A stretch of 63,390 nucleotides of DNA, the filler included, from Rhabdomonas costata (taxonomy: Eukaryota), in the NCBI GenBank assembly GCA_019059605.1. It is 45 parts of 45 records of this genome, joined end to end, with 100 filler letters (N's around TTAATTAATTAA, not from the genome) between each part and the next. Parts side by side here need not be neighbours in the genome. Positions count along the whole stretch, not along the records: positions 26,825 to 28,135 come from JAHMHO010019796.1; 44 more parts are not named here. One strand, 5' to 3'. Each line of letters opens with the position of its first letter. Within the stretch, counting starts at the first letter, position 1. The notes below the pieces were generated by a model. It was not told the DNA's origin and searched no databases. It saw nothing but the letters and a program-made list of their open reading frames with translations. Shown here piece after piece: positions 1 to 45,597 of this stretch. Both the position numbers and the translations under genes were made by a program.

Positions 1-303
1 GGGTGTGTGGGGCATAAATGCACTTACGCCTGTCATTATCTATACCAATACTCTATTCTTAAAAGAAGGTTTCATACATTTGTGTATGAAAGATGTGATG
101 ATGAATACGCAGATTTTAATATATATATGACGAGAACCTAACACAGTGTAACACAGTGAACTCTGATTATTGTCACGTGTGTCGTAAAAAAATTCAATGT
201 TCACAATAATAAATGAAATTTATCGGACCATAGAGAAATTACAGGACTAGATTTCCCGCTTCCAACGGTATTACAGAAGGGCTTGCGAAGACGACGACGT
301 TAC

Positions 304-1303
304 TTGTCAAAGCTCCCCGTGACCAGCTCCATCCCCGTGGGGGAGTAGTCCACCGCCAGTACGGCCGCGGTGTGGCCGGCGTAGGCCTTGCGGGGGCGGC
401 TGAGGGAGCGGGCATCACATAGATAGAGGTTGGTATCCTCGTTGGCCAACCCCAGCTCCATCGGCCGCATCGGGTTCCACACCACGGCGTTGGTGATGTT
501 GCGGAGGTAGAGCTTCACCACCGCCCGCTGGGCCCGGCTGGGGTGAGGGGTGAGTTTGGGGGAATGAAAGAACAATGGGTCACTGCAAGAAGTGTATCAC
601 GGGAACTGCAAGTATCTGGATGTGTTTGGACGCGTCATCTCAAAGAACAAAAACCCACAGAATGCAAACGTTTTGCCGAAAAGAAGCGAAGCGGAAATTA
701 GTGCCGTACAAAAATGCCCAAGACACCGTTCCTAAAGTTTAGCTTCAGACCAGCGCTGGGTGGAACACGTCCTTTCTTCATCCTTTCTCCATGGAGTAAC
801 CCATCCTAGTTTAAAAGCACGCTTTGACCAAGCAGTCAACAATTTTCTGGCGTAGGTGCATGATGGGTCCATCCGTCCATTTTCGGAGCATTTTACGGAT
901 GGATTTTACGCATGGATGCATTGGGCACGACGGGGGGCTCCGCACCCACCAAAAAGCAAATATGCCTGTAGGGACACATGCATCGTTCCCTAACCCCGAG
1001 CGAGACCTTCAGTCATGTCCTAGGGCACACGTATATGGGCACCTAACCCCATGCGAGTCCTACTATCATGTTATAATAGGTAGACGAAACCAAATGCACT
1101 TGATGAGCAAATGCAATAACATGAAGGGTAACCGACTTTTCGACTTTTGCAGACTCCTCTGACCTGTCAAAGAGGCAGACGGCGCGGTCCCGCATGCAGC
1201 AGGCCAGAAGGTGTGTTTCGGAGCGGTTGTAGGCCGCTGTGGAAATGGGGTCATCGCCCCAGTTAAAGCTGTGCACGGGCCTCGTGCGGTTGACGTCCCA
1301 CAG
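304..1303 (-). CDS. DCAF13: DCAF13/SOF1 WD40 protein (U3 snoRNP/SSU processome), two internal exons 1303-1164 and 537-304
   Basis: Spliced translation LWDVNRTRPVHSFNWGDDPISTAAYNRSETHLLACCMRDRAVCLFD|SRAQRAVVKLYLRNITNAVVWNPM...ANEDTNLY...GHTAAVLAVDYSPTGMELVTGSFDK matches Sof1; GT-AG borders keep the frame. Confidence 0.9.
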
Positions 1304-25427: not shown

Positions 25428-26706
25428 TCACGGTGCTGCTGTTTGTGCTGGACGACACGACGGGCATCGGGGTGAGAGTGTGCGCCTTGCCCATCCAAAC
25501 ACACACACACGTGGAGCCGTGTGCTTTCTTGGAGGCCGGATGTCGCCCCGAGGATTGCGCGGTGGGGTTGTGGATGGGCGACGGCTCACGGCGTCCGCGA
25601 AGCTGCGTGTAGGGGTTACTAGCTGAGTGGGACGTGGATTGGTGCCCGCGCGCCCGGGAGGTGGAGTCATCTGTGACGCACGGGGTGGGAACCGTGTGTT
25701 CAGGCGTGAGCCGTCATGTGCGGTTCCCCCGCAGAGCTCAGGGGTGTGGCGGTGGGCGTTGGTGTTGGCTGGTCGTGGGGGCTGGTTCCCGCAGAAGTGT
25801 CAGAACCTCCACAGACCTGCACAAAGGGGAGGTCGCGCAGCCCCTAAGCTCGAGGTGGGCAGGCTCTGTGTACCACGGCTTGTCGAGCCTTGTGGTTGGG
25901 CCTGGGTCCTCGCGGGTGAGAACGGGGACCGGCGCAGGGGAGGAGTCCCCCGCGACACCCGGGTGGGTTGCTCGCTCTTCTCGCTCTCGTTCTCGCTGCT
26001 CTCGCTCTCGTTGTCCCCCTCAGCGTTGCTGCCATCCACACCGCACCACATCTCGGTCCTGTCCGAAAGGTGCATCAGCTGCGTGTTCTACTCGATTCTC
26101 CGCCTGACCGCCTTGCTGACCGTGCGGAGGAGGAGGCCTCCGGGAGGGACGGGTCTTCTTGATCTTCCTCTCGTCACTGTCCGCTTCCCGGGCGCGCCGC
26201 GTTGCATGCTTGATCTGCCCCTTCCAGCGCAGCTGCAGTTGGCGAGACCGCAGCCTGCTGGCGAGGTAGATCAATTGGCGCTCCTCATTGGACCAGCCCG
26301 ACCAGATCTCGTACCGGCGGTTACCCCGAGCGGCTTTGAAGGCCTCGTACTCATGCCGGAACTGCGGGTCCCAGGCTTAATTCGTGGTATAAGACCGCCG
26401 GCTAGTACCCACACACTGGCTCGACGATATAGTGGTCTGAGTCAGGGTGAGCTGCTCGGAAGTGCCTTCCTCCTCGATCATCTCGCCAGCTTCGGCTGTT
26501 GAATGCCCTTCCGAGGGGTTGATCCGTTCTTTGAGGAGAAGCACGCTGCTAGTGGGCAGCTGCGGAACCGGAGAGCCGGTCATCCCGGGCCGGACGTGCC
26601 ACTCCAGGCCATCCATGGGGCACTGGCTGCTCGGCCCCTCGCCTGGCTGCGACAGGGTTTCACCCATCGGATCCCAAGCCTCGGGTTCCGGGCCTTCCTG
26701 CACCAC
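25428..26706 (-). pseudogene. Decayed intronless ORF, possibly a retroelement ORF1/gag-like region
   Basis: ORFs 26706-26377 and 26274-26020 share a frame across a single TAA; RE-rich segment and RSFADAV motif downstream. Confidence 0.35.
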
Positions 26707-26824: not shown

Positions 26825-28136
26825 TTTGTGGTGTACCACCAGTGGCGACTCAGGGGGAACATACTTAAAGTGAAAAAGGTTTCTGATATCCTCGACCCGG
26901 GAGTTGTTACAGGGTTTCTCAGCTTTCTGATAAAGGTAGAGCTCAATAAAGGCATCACTGATATTTGAGGACGACAACGGACACAGCGGCAAGATGGACA
27001 ACTCTTCCCGGTATGCCTGAACAATTCTTTCGCGCAAATTTGCGAAACGACATCCCGGTCTAAAGGATGGGTTTGGAAGAGGAGCCGGCAACGTGGCAAT
27101 TCTGTGCCACACAGTCTTGGCCTGCTCCACAAGCACATCGACAGCACGTCGTACAGCGTCGCGAAGATCCTCCGCATACCTGCGCACTTGGTTCACGGAG
27201 TACGCATCGGTAAAGGTAGAATGCTGAGTCAGACCAATAAAATAAATGATAATCGGAGAGGAACACCCAGGCCGAGGGTGAAAGACGCGGAAGGTCTCGT
27301 CTGGAGCAAAGGGAGTAGCAACATCACCTTCAAGCTGAAAAAAGGAGCCTCTTTCGCACTCTCTTGCAAGCTCTGTTGCTCCCTCGGCACCCATCCCAGC
27401 ATCGACGACGAAAAGGATGTCCACAAAATATCCAAATCGAGGGTCAGAAAACAGCCGGAACGGCACGTTTATATCGATACCTGCATCCCGGAGTCGGTAG
27501 AAAGGCGCCAGATTAGGCTCTTCGTGCACCAAACCTGTAGCAATGGGCCCCAAAGTGGGCTCCAGGCCACCAAAAGCGAGCCCAAAAAGCCTCGCCATAT
27601 GACACCCTTGGTTTCCTTGGGTGAAAGAGAACGCAGAACCACAAGTGGCCATTAGTCGGGGAACGCGATTTAGTTCCAGGTCCTGAGTTGCGTATTCTTC
27701 ACCGGTCTGCACAGCGACTTTGGTAAGGTTGGGAGAGCAAGAAACCCAGTGGAAGTCGTCCTCCGGCTTCTCGGGGTCATCAGCTATGCAGGCGCAAAGT
27801 GTCAGAGGAATGCGACCACCATGACAATGAACATCTGAATAATGTCCAGGCGCGGCCCTTCCAAGCGTTTGGAAAACGCAACGATCCCGAAGGTATTCCT
27901 CCCAGGCTTGGATAATGGAGTGCCCATGTAGGACCGCGGGAAGAAGAACAAAACGGCAAAAACTTTCCCGGTCAAGAGCATCGATGGTGGAGCAATCCAA
28001 ACCGGAAAGTTGAGCAACGCGGGTTACCACGTCCTCACCCAGTGTTCCAGTGCACATTCGACAAAACTTCCGGTAATCCTTGACTTCTACATTCTCATGG
28101 AAGGCACTTGGTTGCTTGAATTGCTTGGCTACACAN
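26825..28136 (-). CDS. Intronless cytosolic phospholipase A2 / lysophospholipase (PLAC)-domain protein; partial, open at both contig ends
   Basis: LMATCGSAFS matches cPLA2 LMGxWGSAFS; RLRDAGIDINVPF...VDILFVVDA matches the catalytic-Asp motif LVDxGLxxNxP...VDLIISFD; the frame has no stop across the ~1.3-kb contig. Confidence 0.75.
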
Positions 28137-28235: not shown

Positions 28236-29438
28236 ACCATGGTTGCCATGCATATTCAGCAAGGTGAGGTTGGGAAAGGTAGGCGAAGCTGCAAGCGCCT
28301 GCAGTTCTTCATTTCCGAAGGAGTTGCCGCTCACATCCAAGGACGTAAGGTTGGGGAAAAACGAGGACGCCGCAAGGACTCGAATCCCCACCGCCCCCAT
28401 GCTGATGTAGTGCACATTTAAAGACCGCAAGTTGGGGAACAAGCAGGATGCTGCGAGCGCTCGCATTCCAGCGTCACCGATCCAATTCCCGCTCAGGTCC
28501 AGCGAGGTGAGGTTGGAGAAGAAAGGCGAAGCCGCAAACGCTTGTATTCCCGCAGTCCCAATACGATTTCCACAAACATTCAAGTACGCAAGATTGGGGA
28601 GGCAAGAGGACCCGGCAAGCGATCGAAGTCCCCCAGCGCGGATTTGATTTCCAGCGAGGTTCAAGGACCTTAGATTGGTAAACAAAGTAGATGACGCAAG
28701 CGCTCGGACCCCTTCAACACCAATTTGATTGTCCCGCAGATCCAAGATCGTGAGGTGGGGAAAGAGGGACGAAACCGCAAGAGCTTGCAGTCCTGCATCG
28801 CCGATATGGTTGTGCTGCACATTCAAAAACCTCAGGTTGGGAAAGGAAGAAGACCCACAGGCCACACCTGAGGACGTGGAGCTGGAAAGGTTTGGAGAAG
28901 CCACATGCGCGCGCCTTCCGCGCGCGCAGATCTGGTTGCTGGCAACATCCAAGTAGGAAAGGGTAGCAAAGGAAGGCACAGCCGTGAGTGCCTGCATTCC
29001 GGCAAAACCGATCTGATTGCGGGATGCATCCAGAGACGTGAGGTTGGCAAAGAAAGGAGCCGCGGCCAGCGCTCGAATGGCCAATGCCCCAATCTCGTTG
29101 CGGGACACATCCAAGGACCTGAGGTTCGGGAAAAGTGAGGAGGCGCGTTCAGCACTCATTTCGAGCATAAGCCCCAGGAGATTCCAGTCTTTGATTGAGA
29201 TCTCTGCGGCCGAGCATCCCAGCCACATGCTTTCGCATGGAATTTCCACTTCGCAACGCCCTCGTAGTATCCTTGGAACGCGAAGAGCAACCTTTCCCTG
29301 AGGGACCAGGAACCCATCCACAAGCGACCGAAACTGCTGGCACACCAGCCGCAGGATCAGCTGTGCCCTTAGTCTCAGAAATTGAAAGGTGCAAACAAAA
29401 GTGTCCTCAGGAAGTGCTTGTGCCATCAACACGGACAT
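28236..29438 (-). CDS. Intronless F-box + RI-like leucine-rich-repeat protein (partial)
   Basis: LPEDTFVCTFQFLRLRAQLILRLVCQQFRSLV is an F-box; ~10 repeats of ~28 aa with consensus FPNLTSLDLSGNxIGDAGxRALAAS. Confidence 0.9.
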
Positions 29439-32143
29439 TGGTGCCCTTTTGTAAGAAAATCTGGAAAAAGAAAAAAGACACAATCAGATCCAAAGGTGCA
29501 CCATGTTTCGTTCGGAAATGGCCATTTCCTTCCTACAACACCCACANNNNNNNNNNNNNNNNNNNNNNNNNNNNNNNNNNNNNNNNNNNNTTAATTAATT
29601 AANNNNNNNNNNNNNNNNNNNNNNNNNNNNNNNNNNNNNNNNNNNNTGGGGGGAGGGTGGGGGCGATGGGAGGATAAGTAGAGCAGGACTAGGAGGCCGC
29701 ATCCAGCCAGTAGGGCACCACGCGAGTACGCCATCGGGTGTAAGTGAGTGAGTGCTTCAGAAAAAGAGTCGGGTGGGGAACATTGGATGGAGCCAAGTGA
29801 AGGGTGTCATCAACCTCTACCACTCAATAACTGCAAAGTTGCCTCCGGAATGGCATTTGGGTCGTTCACGATTAAAATGAATATTTATGGTTTCCAATAG
29901 CAGAGACATGGAACAATCTCCGAAAATTGAGTTGAATGCGGAGCATACAAATACTCACATTCCTGGCTGCTTCCAGCGGCCCCACTCTCTCAACGCAAAA
30001 CAGCGCAAGATCGTTTTGAAGGTTAAACAATGAGCAAGGCGAGGGGGCCCTGGGCTTTATGGTAACTTACCAGCAAAGAAGCAAGTTTGCTCACCTCATC
30101 TCTAATATTTCTATGTTTCGGGCAAAACAAGTACAGCAACGTCAGCCACGGTTTCACTACAGAGCAATGTCATTCCACACACCACTCACTGGAAGACGGG
30201 AATCACATTCCCCGTCTGTGAAAGCGAACAGGTGAAGCCAATCGTAGCACACCCATTCAGACTTCCATAGCCATCCATTTGGAGGCTGAACTCAGAAAAC
30301 TACAAAACTCGCGATGTCGAAAGGCATCATGAAGATCAAAATATCGTTTGAATCTCCTCTCGGGAGACGCTCCGCACTCCAGCATATCAGAGAAGAAATG
30401 CTAGAACTGTGTTGGTGTCACTGTGCCATCGGGCCAAGCGGTTGGAATGGCGTAATCCACCAGCAGTTCACAACAGTCTTTGACCCCAGGGGGAGCAGAT
30501 CCAGGCCGCACTACTACACACTCGTGTCTCTTTTGCACAAGGGGGGAGCCTGGTTGCGTGCTCGTCTTTATTTCTCTGCGGTCAAGCCATTCTCGATGAT
30601 GTTCTCGGTCATTCGTCCCCTTTTGTTTGAGGGCTTGCTGGTGTTCCTGTGCATCAGCACACAAGCCAAAGGGGCGACTGCCGCCGCCGGGGCGGCCACC
30701 TCAGTGTGAGGGTCGGATGGTGAATCTTTCACAGACGGAATTGCGGCGGGTACATCGAGGCGTTGCCCGAGCATTGAGTGAAGGTGATGTTCCGAGTTGC
30801 CCTCAGGGCGGCAGGGGCCGTCTTGCTGTGGGTCATCCACCATCCCAGGATGGTGGGGCTGTCGGGGTACCCCGTGCACTCCGAACGGCCCAGAGGCGGG
30901 GGAAGGTTGACACACCTCCGGCCCCGCAGGCGGCGAAGCGTGCAAGCAAACCAACACNNNNNNNNNNNNNNNNNNNNNNNNNNNNNNNNNNNNNNNNNNN
31001 NTTAATTAATTAANNNNNNNNNNNNNNNNNNNNNNNNNNNNNNNNNNNNNNNNNNNNCCCATCCAGAGTGATTAACGATGTGGAACGGAGTTGTTGGTGG
31101 TACGCGGAGAACAACGTTCACCAGTTAATATACAGTCCGGGAGAAGCGGGTACAAAGTTTGGGCAGGATTTGCAGAGATTGAAGCCGGATAAGTTAATGG
31201 TTAAGGGAAATCCAGATGAGGCGGAGTTGCTGAGCAAATATTTCGAGTTGGTATGACTTCCAGACCATCCACCGATAGTGGCATGCCCCAGAGTAAGAGT
31301 GAAGCAGCCAGGTGTGTTGTCTCCAGATGTCCAGAGCAAAGTGTTGCATCCATTCAAGTTTGTTGTGAGGACTACAAACACATGTCACTTGGGACAGCAT
31401 GTGGGGAATTCACGTTTCCAGACAGATGAAAAGGTGGACCACTGTGCCGTGGTCGAGTGCTTGTATTACTCAGTGTATGGGTTGCCGGGTTCCAGAGTGG
31501 GAAGTTTCACAAATGACCAAATGACCGTTACCCTACGTTTATCAGACACTTTGCCCTTGACGAGAGGAGGTCAATTCCACAGAAGCCAGGGAGCGGAGAA
31601 GACTTGCTGAGCAAGTACCTAACATATTTTGGACCCCCACCTGGTTGAGGTTCTGGAGAGTTGCACAGAACCGGAGAGTTTCAGAGATGGAAGATCCTTT
31701 CCACAGATGGTGTTGATCAGAGCTCAGGTTTTGTGACTGATTCCAGAGATGTGCTATGTGGATTGTGATTCCAGATGTGTGTGCGGTTGCGTGTTGTTTC
31801 CAGAGGGTATGTGGCGTGTTTCCAGAACGTGTTGCGTGATGTGACGTCTTTCCAGAGCGTGTGTTGTCTGCGTGTTGCAAAGCGAGTGGAAGGAGGTCTG
31901 GTGCAGAGATGTTCCAGAGGACGAGTTTACACAGGTTATTTTCCACAGTTTTCCAGAGCTGGACCGTCGTGAGTGATCAGCCGTCGCCCGTCTGTTGGGA
32001 CGTTCTCCGTCCTAGTACGGGAGCGTGTAACGGTCCAGGTCACCAATGTTTTCCTCATTTCAGAGGTAGACAGCCAGGACATCAAGGTGTTTCCAGAGAC
32101 TAGTTTCCAGAGGTTTTATACAGATTCCAGAGAGCCGACAAGA

Positions 32144-40715: not shown

Positions 40716-42010
40716 AGTGGCCCCGTGGAACTAAGGGAGGACTTACCTATTCTCTGAAGGCTGTATTCTTACCTCTTTTTTTCCTTCGTTGCAACTCACC
40801 TTTGAATTCTGGGTTTGGACTTTCGAGTCGTGCTCNNNNNNNNNNNNNNNNNNNNNNNNNNNNNNNNNNNNNNNNNNNNTTAATTAATTAANNNNNNNNN
40901 NNNNNNNNNNNNNNNNNNNNNNNNNNNNNNNNNNNGTGTGGGGGGTAGGGTTGGTGCGGGTCACCGCCAGCTCGGTAAAGATGGGCAGCTTTCGCCACAT
41001 TGTCGGGGTTGAGCTTGGCGATCACACCTTCCGCTCCCAGGTTTCTGTGCCTGTGTTTGTGCAGGTTTCTTTCGCTGAAGATATTTGATTTTTTTGTCTC
41101 TGGACCTGTGCTGGTGTGGAGACCCAGTGTTAGCCTCGAGCCGCAACTTCAGCAAAAACTAAGATCCTTCAGTGGTGGATGATGCTTTCGATGAGGCTGG
41201 GTCGGGAGTTATCAACTGATTTGTAACGCATTCCCTTCGGCACATATATTGGTTGTTGGCATTTTAGGTTTTGCGGTGCACTGGACACGTGACATCTCTG
41301 TGGAATTATACTTGCCCGTGTCGTGCCCGAGCACTGTATCATAACACACACACACAGCCACATCCGAAAGAAAAGCTTCAAGGGTGTTTTCAAAAAAGGC
41401 CCCAGCCCCCCAAGGAAGGAGTGTGGAGTCGCAGAGACCTGAGCAGCAATGGAGCAATGCAGGTAGCCGCTGGAAAAGAGCAGCTGCGCGACAATGGCCC
41501 GGGACCCGTGGGGCAGAAGAGAGGTTACCATATGTGGAACCTTCGGCGGTGAGGCGGTTCCGGTTCCCCACGGCACCGTTCGCTCCAACAGCACCTCTCG
41601 CGAGCACCCGTGGCCACCAGCGCGTGCGCCTGTCAGTCCACAGTGGTCACCAACAACCAGGCAACCAGGCAACCAGGAACAGTAGTCTCTAACATTACGC
41701 ACAGTGTTTGGCTGTGTGATCGTGCAACACCAATGCCTCTGTCGGTTGTGAAGGTGTCGCAATGCCTCGGGTCGCCACCAAATAGGTGAGAGGACAAATG
41801 GACTCCTGTTTGACGTGCAACTTGACGAACGCTGCTTTGCTGGAAGACTGCAGAGGTGTATTTGCGAAACATATGGGGGAATATTGAGGTTTCGGTCTGT
41901 CTGGAAACCCTGGTACTCTGCAAAGCCTCCCGCCAGGGCAGCAATTCCATATCGGCGTCGCCTGCCTTCTACAGTCATCCTCTTGGACACACCGATTGCA
42001 AACGTGCAGG

Positions 42011-42180
42011 TGTTTTACACGGCGAACGAGGAAAACTCATGGGTTGCGATCAGCTTTGGCCGTCATCGGATCTGCCCCACGCACTACACGATGGCCCACC
42101 GGGTGGCGGTGGCGATGTACTTCGCCCGGTGTTGGACCTTCGAGGGCTCCATGAATGGCAAGCAGTGGACTGTCCTGAGG
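42011..42180 (+). CDS. Exon of a galactose-binding-like/F5-8C (HECTD1/BTB-associated) domain
   Basis: YTANEENSWVAISFG..ICPTHYTMAH....ARCWTFEGSMNGKQWTVLR resembles HECTD1 HTNDDKNAWFAIDLG...PSAYTLRH...RNWVFQVSKDGQNWT. Confidence 0.7.
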
Positions 42181-43656: not shown

Positions 43657-44540
43657 NNNNNNNNNNNNNNNNNNNNNNNNNNNNNNNNNNNNNNNNNNNN
43701 TTAATTAATTAANNNNNNNNNNNNNNNNNNNNNNNNNNNNNNNNNNNNNNNNNNNNCGGTACAACACCGAAGTACAGTGGAGAGTGGAGACATCGAGATG
43801 CATCGGAGGGCCGCAACCGGAACGAGAAGAAGAACACACAGAGAGACGAGCACTCGTAGACACACACAGAGAGATAGTGGTGTGCACTGGGCGAACAGCG
43901 AAAATCCGGAATGGTATTCCATGTCAGCACAGAGAAGAGAAAATCGGATCGGTGCACTGAAATTGTGGGTGTGGGGCAGGCTATTGCCCTGGGTTCAGGC
44001 AGTGAGGTTCCAGTGACGGGTGGGGGGAGCGAGTAAGCAAACCAACCTCTATCACAAGTCTGTCGCATGATGCTGCTGATTCATTTTGGACGGTCACAAA
44101 TCCGGCCAGCGTTGCAATTAAAATGACGGTACTCTTCCTTTGCATATGCATAAGTGATGGAGGGGGGCTTCAGCTTCTTGTAGGGACAAAAAAAAAGGTA
44201 GTGGAGAACAAATACTAATCAGGCCTTATCTGTAAAAAAGGCCTCCTGAGTGACAGCTTGCCGTCTTTCCTGCCCCCCCCCCCTGTTACCTTTCCCCATT
44301 TTGAAAAATAAATGCATTTAGAGGTGGTTGACCCAGTTTTCCAAACTTGCACTAAAATAAACACTGACAAAAAGTGACAAATGACAGACGCTGAGCACCA
44401 GCAAATGCTTAGCGGTGTTTATCATTTAACGTCCCCCCCCCAAAAATACAATAGTGCCAAAGAACATATGCAAAGTCCGCGCGGGGGAGCACACCGCAAC
44501 GGCGATGTAAATCCCCATCACAGACACGGTGGGGCTGAAC

Positions 44541-44709
44541 CGGGGGTACGTCATCAGAGGGCCTGTGGTCCATCGCGGCACTTCGGGCTGCCTCACCGTG
44601 CCCACCTCCAGCCACTCAATGGTGGCTAGCGCTCGGGCAGCAGTGTCCGAGGCCGAGTCCGCGCCCCCCACCACGTAGAGCCTGGAGCCCACGGCGATCA
44701 TCGCATGCC
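44541..44709 (-). CDS. Kelch-repeat protein, internal exon
   Basis: GHAMIAVGSRLYVVGG...IEWL...WTTGPLMTYPR fits the kelch consensus; AG/GT borders. Confidence 0.85.
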
Positions 44710-45597
44710 CTGAAGCAGGTGCCCGAAAATATGGACCAGATGCAGACAGCATATGAAGGGTAAAAAACCAGGGTTGACGCGCAGCGAAAACCCTGCCACC
44801 CGCGTTCTTCTTTCTTAAGGTTCCTTCCCTGAGAAGATCCCTCGCTATTGATGCTGGAAAAGCAACGGCCACGATTACTGAAACAGGTCTTCCTGGGCGG
44901 GTGAATAAAGTCTCTACGAAAAATGCGTGTGCAAATACTGGCATATCAGCTGGCGTCGTCGTGATTCGTCCCTAGAAAGGTATGGGGGCAATATATAAGT
45001 TCGCCTATCATGAATACAACGAAAGAGGAAAAAACGACTGATTTGATGGAAAAGTACAACACCCACNNNNNNNNNNNNNNNNNNNNNNNNNNNNNNNNNN
45101 NNNNNNNNNNTTAATTAATTAANNNNNNNNNNNNNNNNNNNNNNNNNNNNNNNNNNNNNNNNNNNNTGGGTGTGGGTGTGGGTGGGTCCCGATCTCAAGG
45201 CCTGACTCTGGATATCCCTATGACTATGGAGAACCACGGGGAATGTGGCGAAGCAAAACTGAGCGGGCAAGTCAAGCGTAAAACCACACGCAGGTGTACC
45301 TGGATCATTGAGACGTCATTCGCACCTAAAAGAACAGAAGAATAAAAATTAAAGATAAATGAAAGCAGACCCCCAAATGCGACTTTGAAGGTGTTCCGCA
45401 ACCGATTTTCTTCAAGGCATTGGCGCTTTCTGTTCCCTCAGGACAGTTTACGCCAGTGGTCCTCCTGAACAGTGAACATCTTATTTTTTCGGATTTATGA
45501 TGCCTGCTGCTGCCCCCGTGAAGGGCTTCTGGAGAGCTAACGCTGTGAGACACACATGTACACGGACGCAGAGGGACAGAGGGGGGTGCGAGAGTAC

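Follow-up and report, generated by a model that had tools for sequence, protein, structure and literature searches.

The open frame and its surroundings

A single open frame spans the contig at positions 26825..28135 on the minus strand and is cut by the contig borders at both ends; base 28136 is an N and lies outside the contig. The frame (frame 0 of the minus strand) was free of stops over 437 of 437 codons. Given the base composition of the contig, the chance of such a frame is about 1e-8, and about 3e-6 if six frames in each of 45 contigs are considered. In each of the 44 other contigs the longest stop-free frame had between 88 and 416 codons. Counted from stop to stop, just four frames in the entire window reach 250 aa or more. 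The window is the whole stretch of DNA that was analysed, with 63,390 bases in total. It consists of 45 contigs of 1306-1326 bp each, apparently ordered by size and chained by 44 N, TTAATTAATTAA and 44 N. Since the contigs were chained artificially, neighbours in the window are not physically linked and provide no genomic context. The GC content of the single contigs was between 0.43 and 0.64. A search of the entire window against Rfam gave no match.

Residues 1-63 of the predicted protein (27947..28135, minus strand) are coding-like and could not be aligned to relatives. They contain the strings AFHE (residues 11-14) and QLSGL (residues 42-46). Residues 64-348 (27092..27946, minus strand) were assigned to a cPLA2-type (PLA2_B-like) lipase domain, of which the part downstream of the nucleophile is present, including the GSAFS block (residues 166-170) and the catalytic-Asp motif. 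Residues 349-437 (26825..27091, minus strand) form the linker between the lipase domain and an expected NACHT domain. All peptide strings quoted in the original prediction were located at the places claimed. On the minus strand, LMATCGSAFS was found at residues 161-170 (27626..27655), LRDAGIDINVPF at residues 215-226 (27458..27493), VDILFVVDA at residues 238-246 (27398..27424), LRERIV...LYQK at residues 367-404 (26924..27037) and RVEDIRNLF at residues 413-421 (26873..26899). None of the motifs GxSxG, GGGxR and GxxGxGK[ST] occurs in canonical form within the 437 residues.

A frame without stop or intron across the whole contig had been predicted. The absence of stops was borne out, and the absence of introns holds for the aligned part, where residues 64-405 were colinear with the relatives in a family HMM built without the protein itself. 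Residues 1-63 and 406-437 align poorly to relatives. With a codon table derived from the core, the coding frame was favoured over the out-of-frame readings by 12-15 nats for residues 1-63 and by 9-14 nats for residues 406-437. Furthermore, each of the other two frames contains three stops within the first 186 bases. The entire contig looks like a single exon.

Several other frames of the window were examined. The next contig contains a 416-codon open frame (28236..29483, minus strand) in which LRR_6 repeats of the RNI type extend over a long stretch (E 1.1e-44). At its N-terminus an F-box-like match was detected (E 4.6e-4), with 20.4 bits at a Pfam cut-off of 20.5. Similarity of this frame to the LRR parts of NACHT-bearing relatives is generic, with 25-30% identity and E values of about 1e-5. 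This LRR contig (28236..29546) is separate, with no evidence for a connection to the lipase gene. Two further open frames, 25627..26502 (plus strand, 291 aa) and 41169..42014 (minus strand, 281 aa), had no Pfam match; the former is located on the most GC-rich contig (0.64) and is of low complexity, rich in Arg, Gly and Pro. For 44429..44971 (minus strand, 181 aa) a sub-threshold match to Kelch_6 was obtained (E 5e-4, 20.4 bits, cut-off 25.3). Pfam searches with nine further long frames of the window (ten including the Kelch_6 frame) yielded no match.

Lipase homology and the catalytic residues

The predicted protein alone gave no significant match to Pfam (E<=1), NCBIfam or the sequences of the PDB, and no relative was found by a word-indexed homologue search at near and at longer lengths. 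When 1.84 billion representative proteins were scanned with HMMER, 43 relatives were identified at E<=1e-3, 13 of them at E<=1e-10. For the best relative, P0001, an E value of 1.1e-29 and 36% identity were obtained, and phmmer aligned residues 63-377 with residues 85-421 of P0001. For a family HMM, 20 relatives were trimmed and the protein itself was left out; this HMM recognised residues 64-405 with E 5.8e-62. The protein and 39 relatives were combined in alignment A1. Trimmed local alignments were used for the terminal regions, because the global alignment A1 scatters the ends of the protein.

Searched against the PDB, the profile of A1 matched cPLA2-alpha (1CJY) with 1.5e-38 and cPLA2-delta with 1e-22. 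The RDAG column was placed on residues 545-549 of 1CJY and the GSAF block on WGSAFS of cPLA2. Asp217, which lies within LRDAGIDINVPF and is encoded at 27485..27487 (minus strand), falls into the column of the catalytic Asp549 and is the counterpart of this residue of human cPLA2-alpha. Among the 40 sequences of the alignment D217, G219 and N223 are invariant. An AlphaFold model of the protein, built with A1, reached a mean pLDDT of 66.9, with mostly about 75-94 in the core (residues 210-350) and less than 50 at both ends. In a Foldseek search of the PDB with this model, the top 10 matches were all cPLA2-alpha or cPLA2-delta (best E 1.4e-5, TM 0.47), and beyond cPLA2 chains nothing was found with E below 0.4. 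A protein atlas yielded clusters of PLA2_B and patatin as weak leads, with scores of 0.76-0.80.

The original prediction of a cPLA2-type lipase is thus confirmed via the relatives and by the predicted fold. A hit to the PLA2_B profile, also expected, was obtained in part: the protein itself stays below the Pfam threshold for PLA2_B (PF01735), and 28 of the 39 relatives match this family. When relatives were scanned singly, the PLA2_B matches almost always covered profile positions of about 1-66, which correspond to the part upstream of the contig. Based on transitive homology and modelled fold, with no direct Pfam hit, we consider the assignment of the predicted protein as a lipase to be sound.

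According to the original prediction the catalytic Ser lies outside the contig. The distance from this residue to a conserved Trp (W78 of the predicted protein) is 66 residues in P0001, 75 in P0019 and 77 in P0036, and it is larger in most other relatives; in a few rows the SGGG loop was taken for the elbow, and there the distance is overstated. In the predicted protein 77 residues are available before W78. By this spacing, the Ser elbow and GGGxR are probably located just upstream of the contig, with the Ser a few codons off, so that the predicted position of the Ser is probable; canonical GxSxG was not among the 437 residues.

Two strings near the N-terminus were considered as remnants of conserved motifs. 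The NPFH motif of the family follows the Ser by about 17-28 residues. AFHE may be its counterpart and its spacing is plausible, but with 0.7 bits in the NPFH PSSM, a score reached by 931 of 5000 shuffles, the match is not significant. QLSGL was tested as nucleophile elbow. In two MAFFT alignments L43-S44-G45 was matched to the elbow's LSG; despite this placement, the candidate was rejected for lack of support. In a PSSM of the elbow with 22 columns, its window scored -9.1 bits, and 281 of 5000 shuffles scored as high. Relatives with an elbow reached at least 48.6 bits, and those in which the region is missing scored between -14 and -9 bits. The family HMM gave no alignment with residues 1-66.

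These results bear on the question whether the gene is a decayed or catalytically dead copy that has lost the Ser nucleophile and the oxyanion loop, and would represent a pseudoenzyme adaptor or a young pseudogene. Such a copy would account for the lack of GxSxG and GGGxR, and a Ser spaced as in P0001 or P0019 would be encoded on the contig. The MAFFT placement would then mark QLSGL as a degraded elbow. However, the distance is at least 77 in most relatives, by which the Ser is expected upstream of the contig, and QLSGL scored no better than relatives without the region. In the AlphaFold model residues 32-43 form a helix and not the strand-turn-helix of an elbow, albeit at low confidence. The retention of Asp217, GSAFS and 18 near-invariant positions also argues against decay, as do the 437 stop-free codons and the in-frame codon usage, which extends even to residues 1-63. 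We therefore regard a dead copy as rather unlikely.

The linker and the expected NACHT domain

The original prediction of a fusion to a NACHT domain is not visible on the contig, which contains no Walker A, no NACHT and no LRR; the fusion rests on relatives with at most 36% identity. Nevertheless, it is strongly suggested by these relatives, the tree and the linker. Pfam searches with the 39 relatives revealed NACHT in 14 (best 7.7e-13), LRR_4 in nine and LRR_6 in six. For P0004, PLA2_B was found at residues 57-101, NACHT at 627-780 and LRR_6 near 1350; for P0009 the corresponding positions are 42-93, 527-699 and near 1445. P0001 contains NACHT at 474-634 and LRR_5 at 1106-1220. In the relatives the motifs follow each other in the order GGGxR, GLSG[GS] and RDAG[IL]. 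NACHT-bearing forms then carry GxxGxGK[ST] about 212-241 residues past the Asp. The profile of A1 also reached PDB chains of NLRP1, NLRP3 and NOD2 type with E values of about 4e-4 to 3e-3. In P0004, a protein of Pelomyxa schiedti, residues 1600-1692 at the C-terminal side gave a SKICH-like match (E 1.3e-5) and a weaker one to HECW_N; the SKICH-like region may be an extra targeting module.

The segment that was predicted to precede the Walker A is colinear with NACHT-bearing relatives. Their phmmer alignments extend to residue 377 (P0001), 401 (P0004), 406 (P0005) and 369 (P0013) of the predicted protein. With tblastn, P0001 was aligned up to its residue 452, 27 residues short of its Walker A at 479. 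The linker alone (residues 342-437) gave a weak score of 3.3 bits with a linker HMM, and five of 1000 shuffles scored as high. In 14 relatives the Phe aligned to F396 stands 42-49 residues before the Walker A. In the predicted protein 41 residues follow F396; hence the contig ends about 1-8 residues before the expected Walker A. PLVVHHK at the very end of the frame (residues 431-437, 26825..26845, minus strand) is in register with the strand (e.g. RLVVLEG) that directly precedes GxGK[ST] in the relatives bearing NACHT and LRRs. The P-loop had been predicted to lie outside the contig. This agrees with the lack of GxxGxGK[ST] in the 437 residues and with the spacing. A NACHT domain downstream of the contig end is quite likely. 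An exact match of 40 bases from the contig end was searched in metagenome contigs, and none was found. With 53 relatives as tblastn queries, this contig was the only one of the window matched as a gene piece, apart from generic LRR similarity on the next contig (28236..29546).

A maximum likelihood tree of the lipase domain ('quick' method) was calculated with 36 rows, the predicted protein and 35 relatives. Eight of the 43 hits were omitted, as the RDAG motif was absent or the sequence was too short. The predicted protein was placed as sister to the NACHT-bearing P0001 with an SH-aLRT of 89, which is not starred. Mapped onto the tree, the NACHT label required three changes, compared with a mean of 11.5 after shuffling. 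The tie of the predicted protein to NACHT-bearing forms is good but not conclusive, because both the protein and P0001 have long branches and no starred set contains the protein.

A second clade among P0007-P0042, here called the 'GGGWR' group, comprises 18 relatives, of which 14 are sufficiently complete for an assessment. They contain the same lipase domain, and NACHT is absent at the expected place. These proteins comprise up to about 1260 aa in total, with long C-terminal parts. As in animal cPLA2, a C2 domain is present at the N-terminus of one member, P0007.

The predicted protein could instead be a cPLA2-like lipase that stands alone, lacks NACHT and carries an unrelated tail at its C-terminus. 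There is no NACHT on the contig, the similarity of the linker itself is weak, and 14 of the 35 relatives in the tree extend more than 270 residues past the Asp with no Walker A at the expected place. However, all 14 of these forms are found within the clade of 18 rows (SH-aLRT 94) and the predicted protein is placed outside of it. The phmmer alignments to hits without NACHT end at residue 357 or before, whereas NACHT-bearing ones extend beyond, as described above. Furthermore, the distance from F396 to the contig end suits the NACHT forms. A stand-alone lipase is unlikely in view of these data.

The origin of the gene was examined as well. Four NCBI proteins of Pelomyxa schiedti are among the relatives. 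The other named relatives are transcripts of Mastigella eilhardi and one transcript of Papus ankaliazontas, and the remaining ones were derived from metagenome or run assemblies. Pelomyxa and Mastigella are Amoebozoa, and Papus belongs to Rhizaria. In metagenome contigs the pattern scan with alignment A2 detected one locus of 1.3 kb (L001) with a lipase fragment only. This related fragment (1..348, plus strand; FLRDAGIDVNVPF ... RIFWPPKT) shows 43% identity to residues 215-287 of the predicted protein. After RIFWPPKT its frame no longer follows the family, suggestive of an intron or a break, and the remainder of the contig is of low complexity and rich in Ser, Pro and Asn. Two observations would fit contamination of the assembly with bacterial or viral DNA instead of a protist gene: a frame of at least 400 codons exists on just one other contig of the window, and the closest relative, P0001, stems from metagenome contigs. 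However, the contig ranks ninth of 45 in trinucleotide closeness to the window centroid, its CpG o/e is ordinary (0.86, median 0.77), and the named relatives are eukaryotic. Scans with A2, which see only sequences fitting the few patterns used, were negative both for 185,579 prokaryote species, each represented by one genome, and for 2.9 million viral contigs, and contamination is very improbable in view of these data.

Interpretation and comparison with known systems

Taken together, we interpret the contig as an internal, intron-free gene piece of an NLR-like STAND protein with a cPLA2-type head, whose NACHT domain is located off the contig. We assign this reading a probability of about 75%. 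As its N-terminal effector the protein would carry a serine-aspartate phospholipase of cPLA2 type; a NACHT NTPase and then, probably, leucine-rich repeats would follow beyond the contig end. By analogy with NLRs that have an enzyme as head, a ligand would be recognised by the repeats, and nucleotide-dependent oligomerisation of NACHT would gather the lipase heads and activate them by proximity. The heads could then hydrolyse glycerophospholipids of membranes, and cell death or a lipid signal might be the outcome. On the same analogy we infer an immune or cell-death role of the gene.

NLR-like receptors with enzymatic heads occur in fungi (patatin, PNP_UDP and others), in bacteria and in plants (TIR). 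To our knowledge, their use by unicellular protists has been little explored. NLR-like proteins headed by a lipase are of a known kind. Among the papers listed in full-text searches, none on a cPLA2/PLA2_B-NACHT combination was found, although supplementary tables of NLR surveys could list such architectures. A broader search of the literature on NACHT, phospholipases and effectors retrieved only fungal and bacterial work, and in the main text of a preprint on bacterial NACHT proteins the words 'phospholipase' and 'patatin' are absent. Full-length members are already present, unremarked, in public databases, where those showing the complete architecture bear the names 'cytosolic phospholipase A2', 'leucine Rich Repeat family protein' or 'hypothetical protein'.

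Tentatively, and with slightly less than even confidence, we propose that cPLA2-NACHT-LRR proteins form a distinct NLR-like lineage undescribed in the literature searched. It would occur in at least two protist supergroups and in the organism studied here, and would use a C2-less and mostly lid-less lipase as innate immune or cell-death executioner. A cPLA2-type lipase wired to NACHT-LRR would add a new effector class, suggests that hydrolysis of membrane lipids as NLR output arose more than once, and would connect the cPLA2 family of animals with the context of immune receptors. As the contig is a fragment, its value is that of a pointer to this family.

Human cPLA2-alpha and cPLA2-delta (1CJY, 5IXC; PF01735) share the predicted fold, as indicated by the Foldseek matches. 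They also have the GSAFS block and the dyad Asp (D217 on D549) in common with the predicted protein, and the relatives retain GGGxR and GLSG[GS] as cPLA2 does. Differences were found in the domain composition. Among the relatives scanned singly, a C2 domain was detected only in P0007, which has no NACHT hit; in contrast to cPLA2, no C2 domain was seen in the NACHT-bearing relatives scanned singly. From GSAFS to the Asp the predicted protein comprises about 50 residues, compared with about 145 in 1CJY; thus most of the cap/lid insert is missing. Furthermore, the lipase domain is followed by a linker, which in the relatives leads to NACHT and LRRs, unlike in cPLA2.

With animal NLRP1, NLRP3 and NOD2 the relatives share the NACHT domain recognised by Pfam and the C-terminal LRRs, as well as a hydrophobic strand directly before the Walker A. 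In contrast to these animal proteins, the head is an enzyme and not a PYD or CARD adaptor; for the gene described here, the NACHT-LRR part would lie off the contig.

A similar architecture is found in fungal NLRs with a patatin head, such as PLP-1 of Neurospora. Here, too, a lipase of patatin/cPLA2 kind is N-terminal to a STAND NTPase and C-terminal repeats. In the fungal literature, Patatin (PF01734) is described as 'almost invariably' paired with NB-ARC (PMC4986451), and the starting domains of a fungal effector survey include Patatin without PLA2_B (PMC9815663). In contrast to the fungal Patatin-NB-ARC proteins, the head described here is of PLA2_B/cPLA2 type, and the relatives bear NACHT with LRRs. 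The hosts differ as well, with fungi for PLP-1 and unicellular protists for the present family. For PLP-1, oligomerisation and sensing by the C-terminal domain were reported, and the phospholipase domain was described as essential for cell death (PMC10197012). PLP-1 is the nearest tested analogue of the mechanism proposed for the cPLA2-NACHT-LRR proteins.
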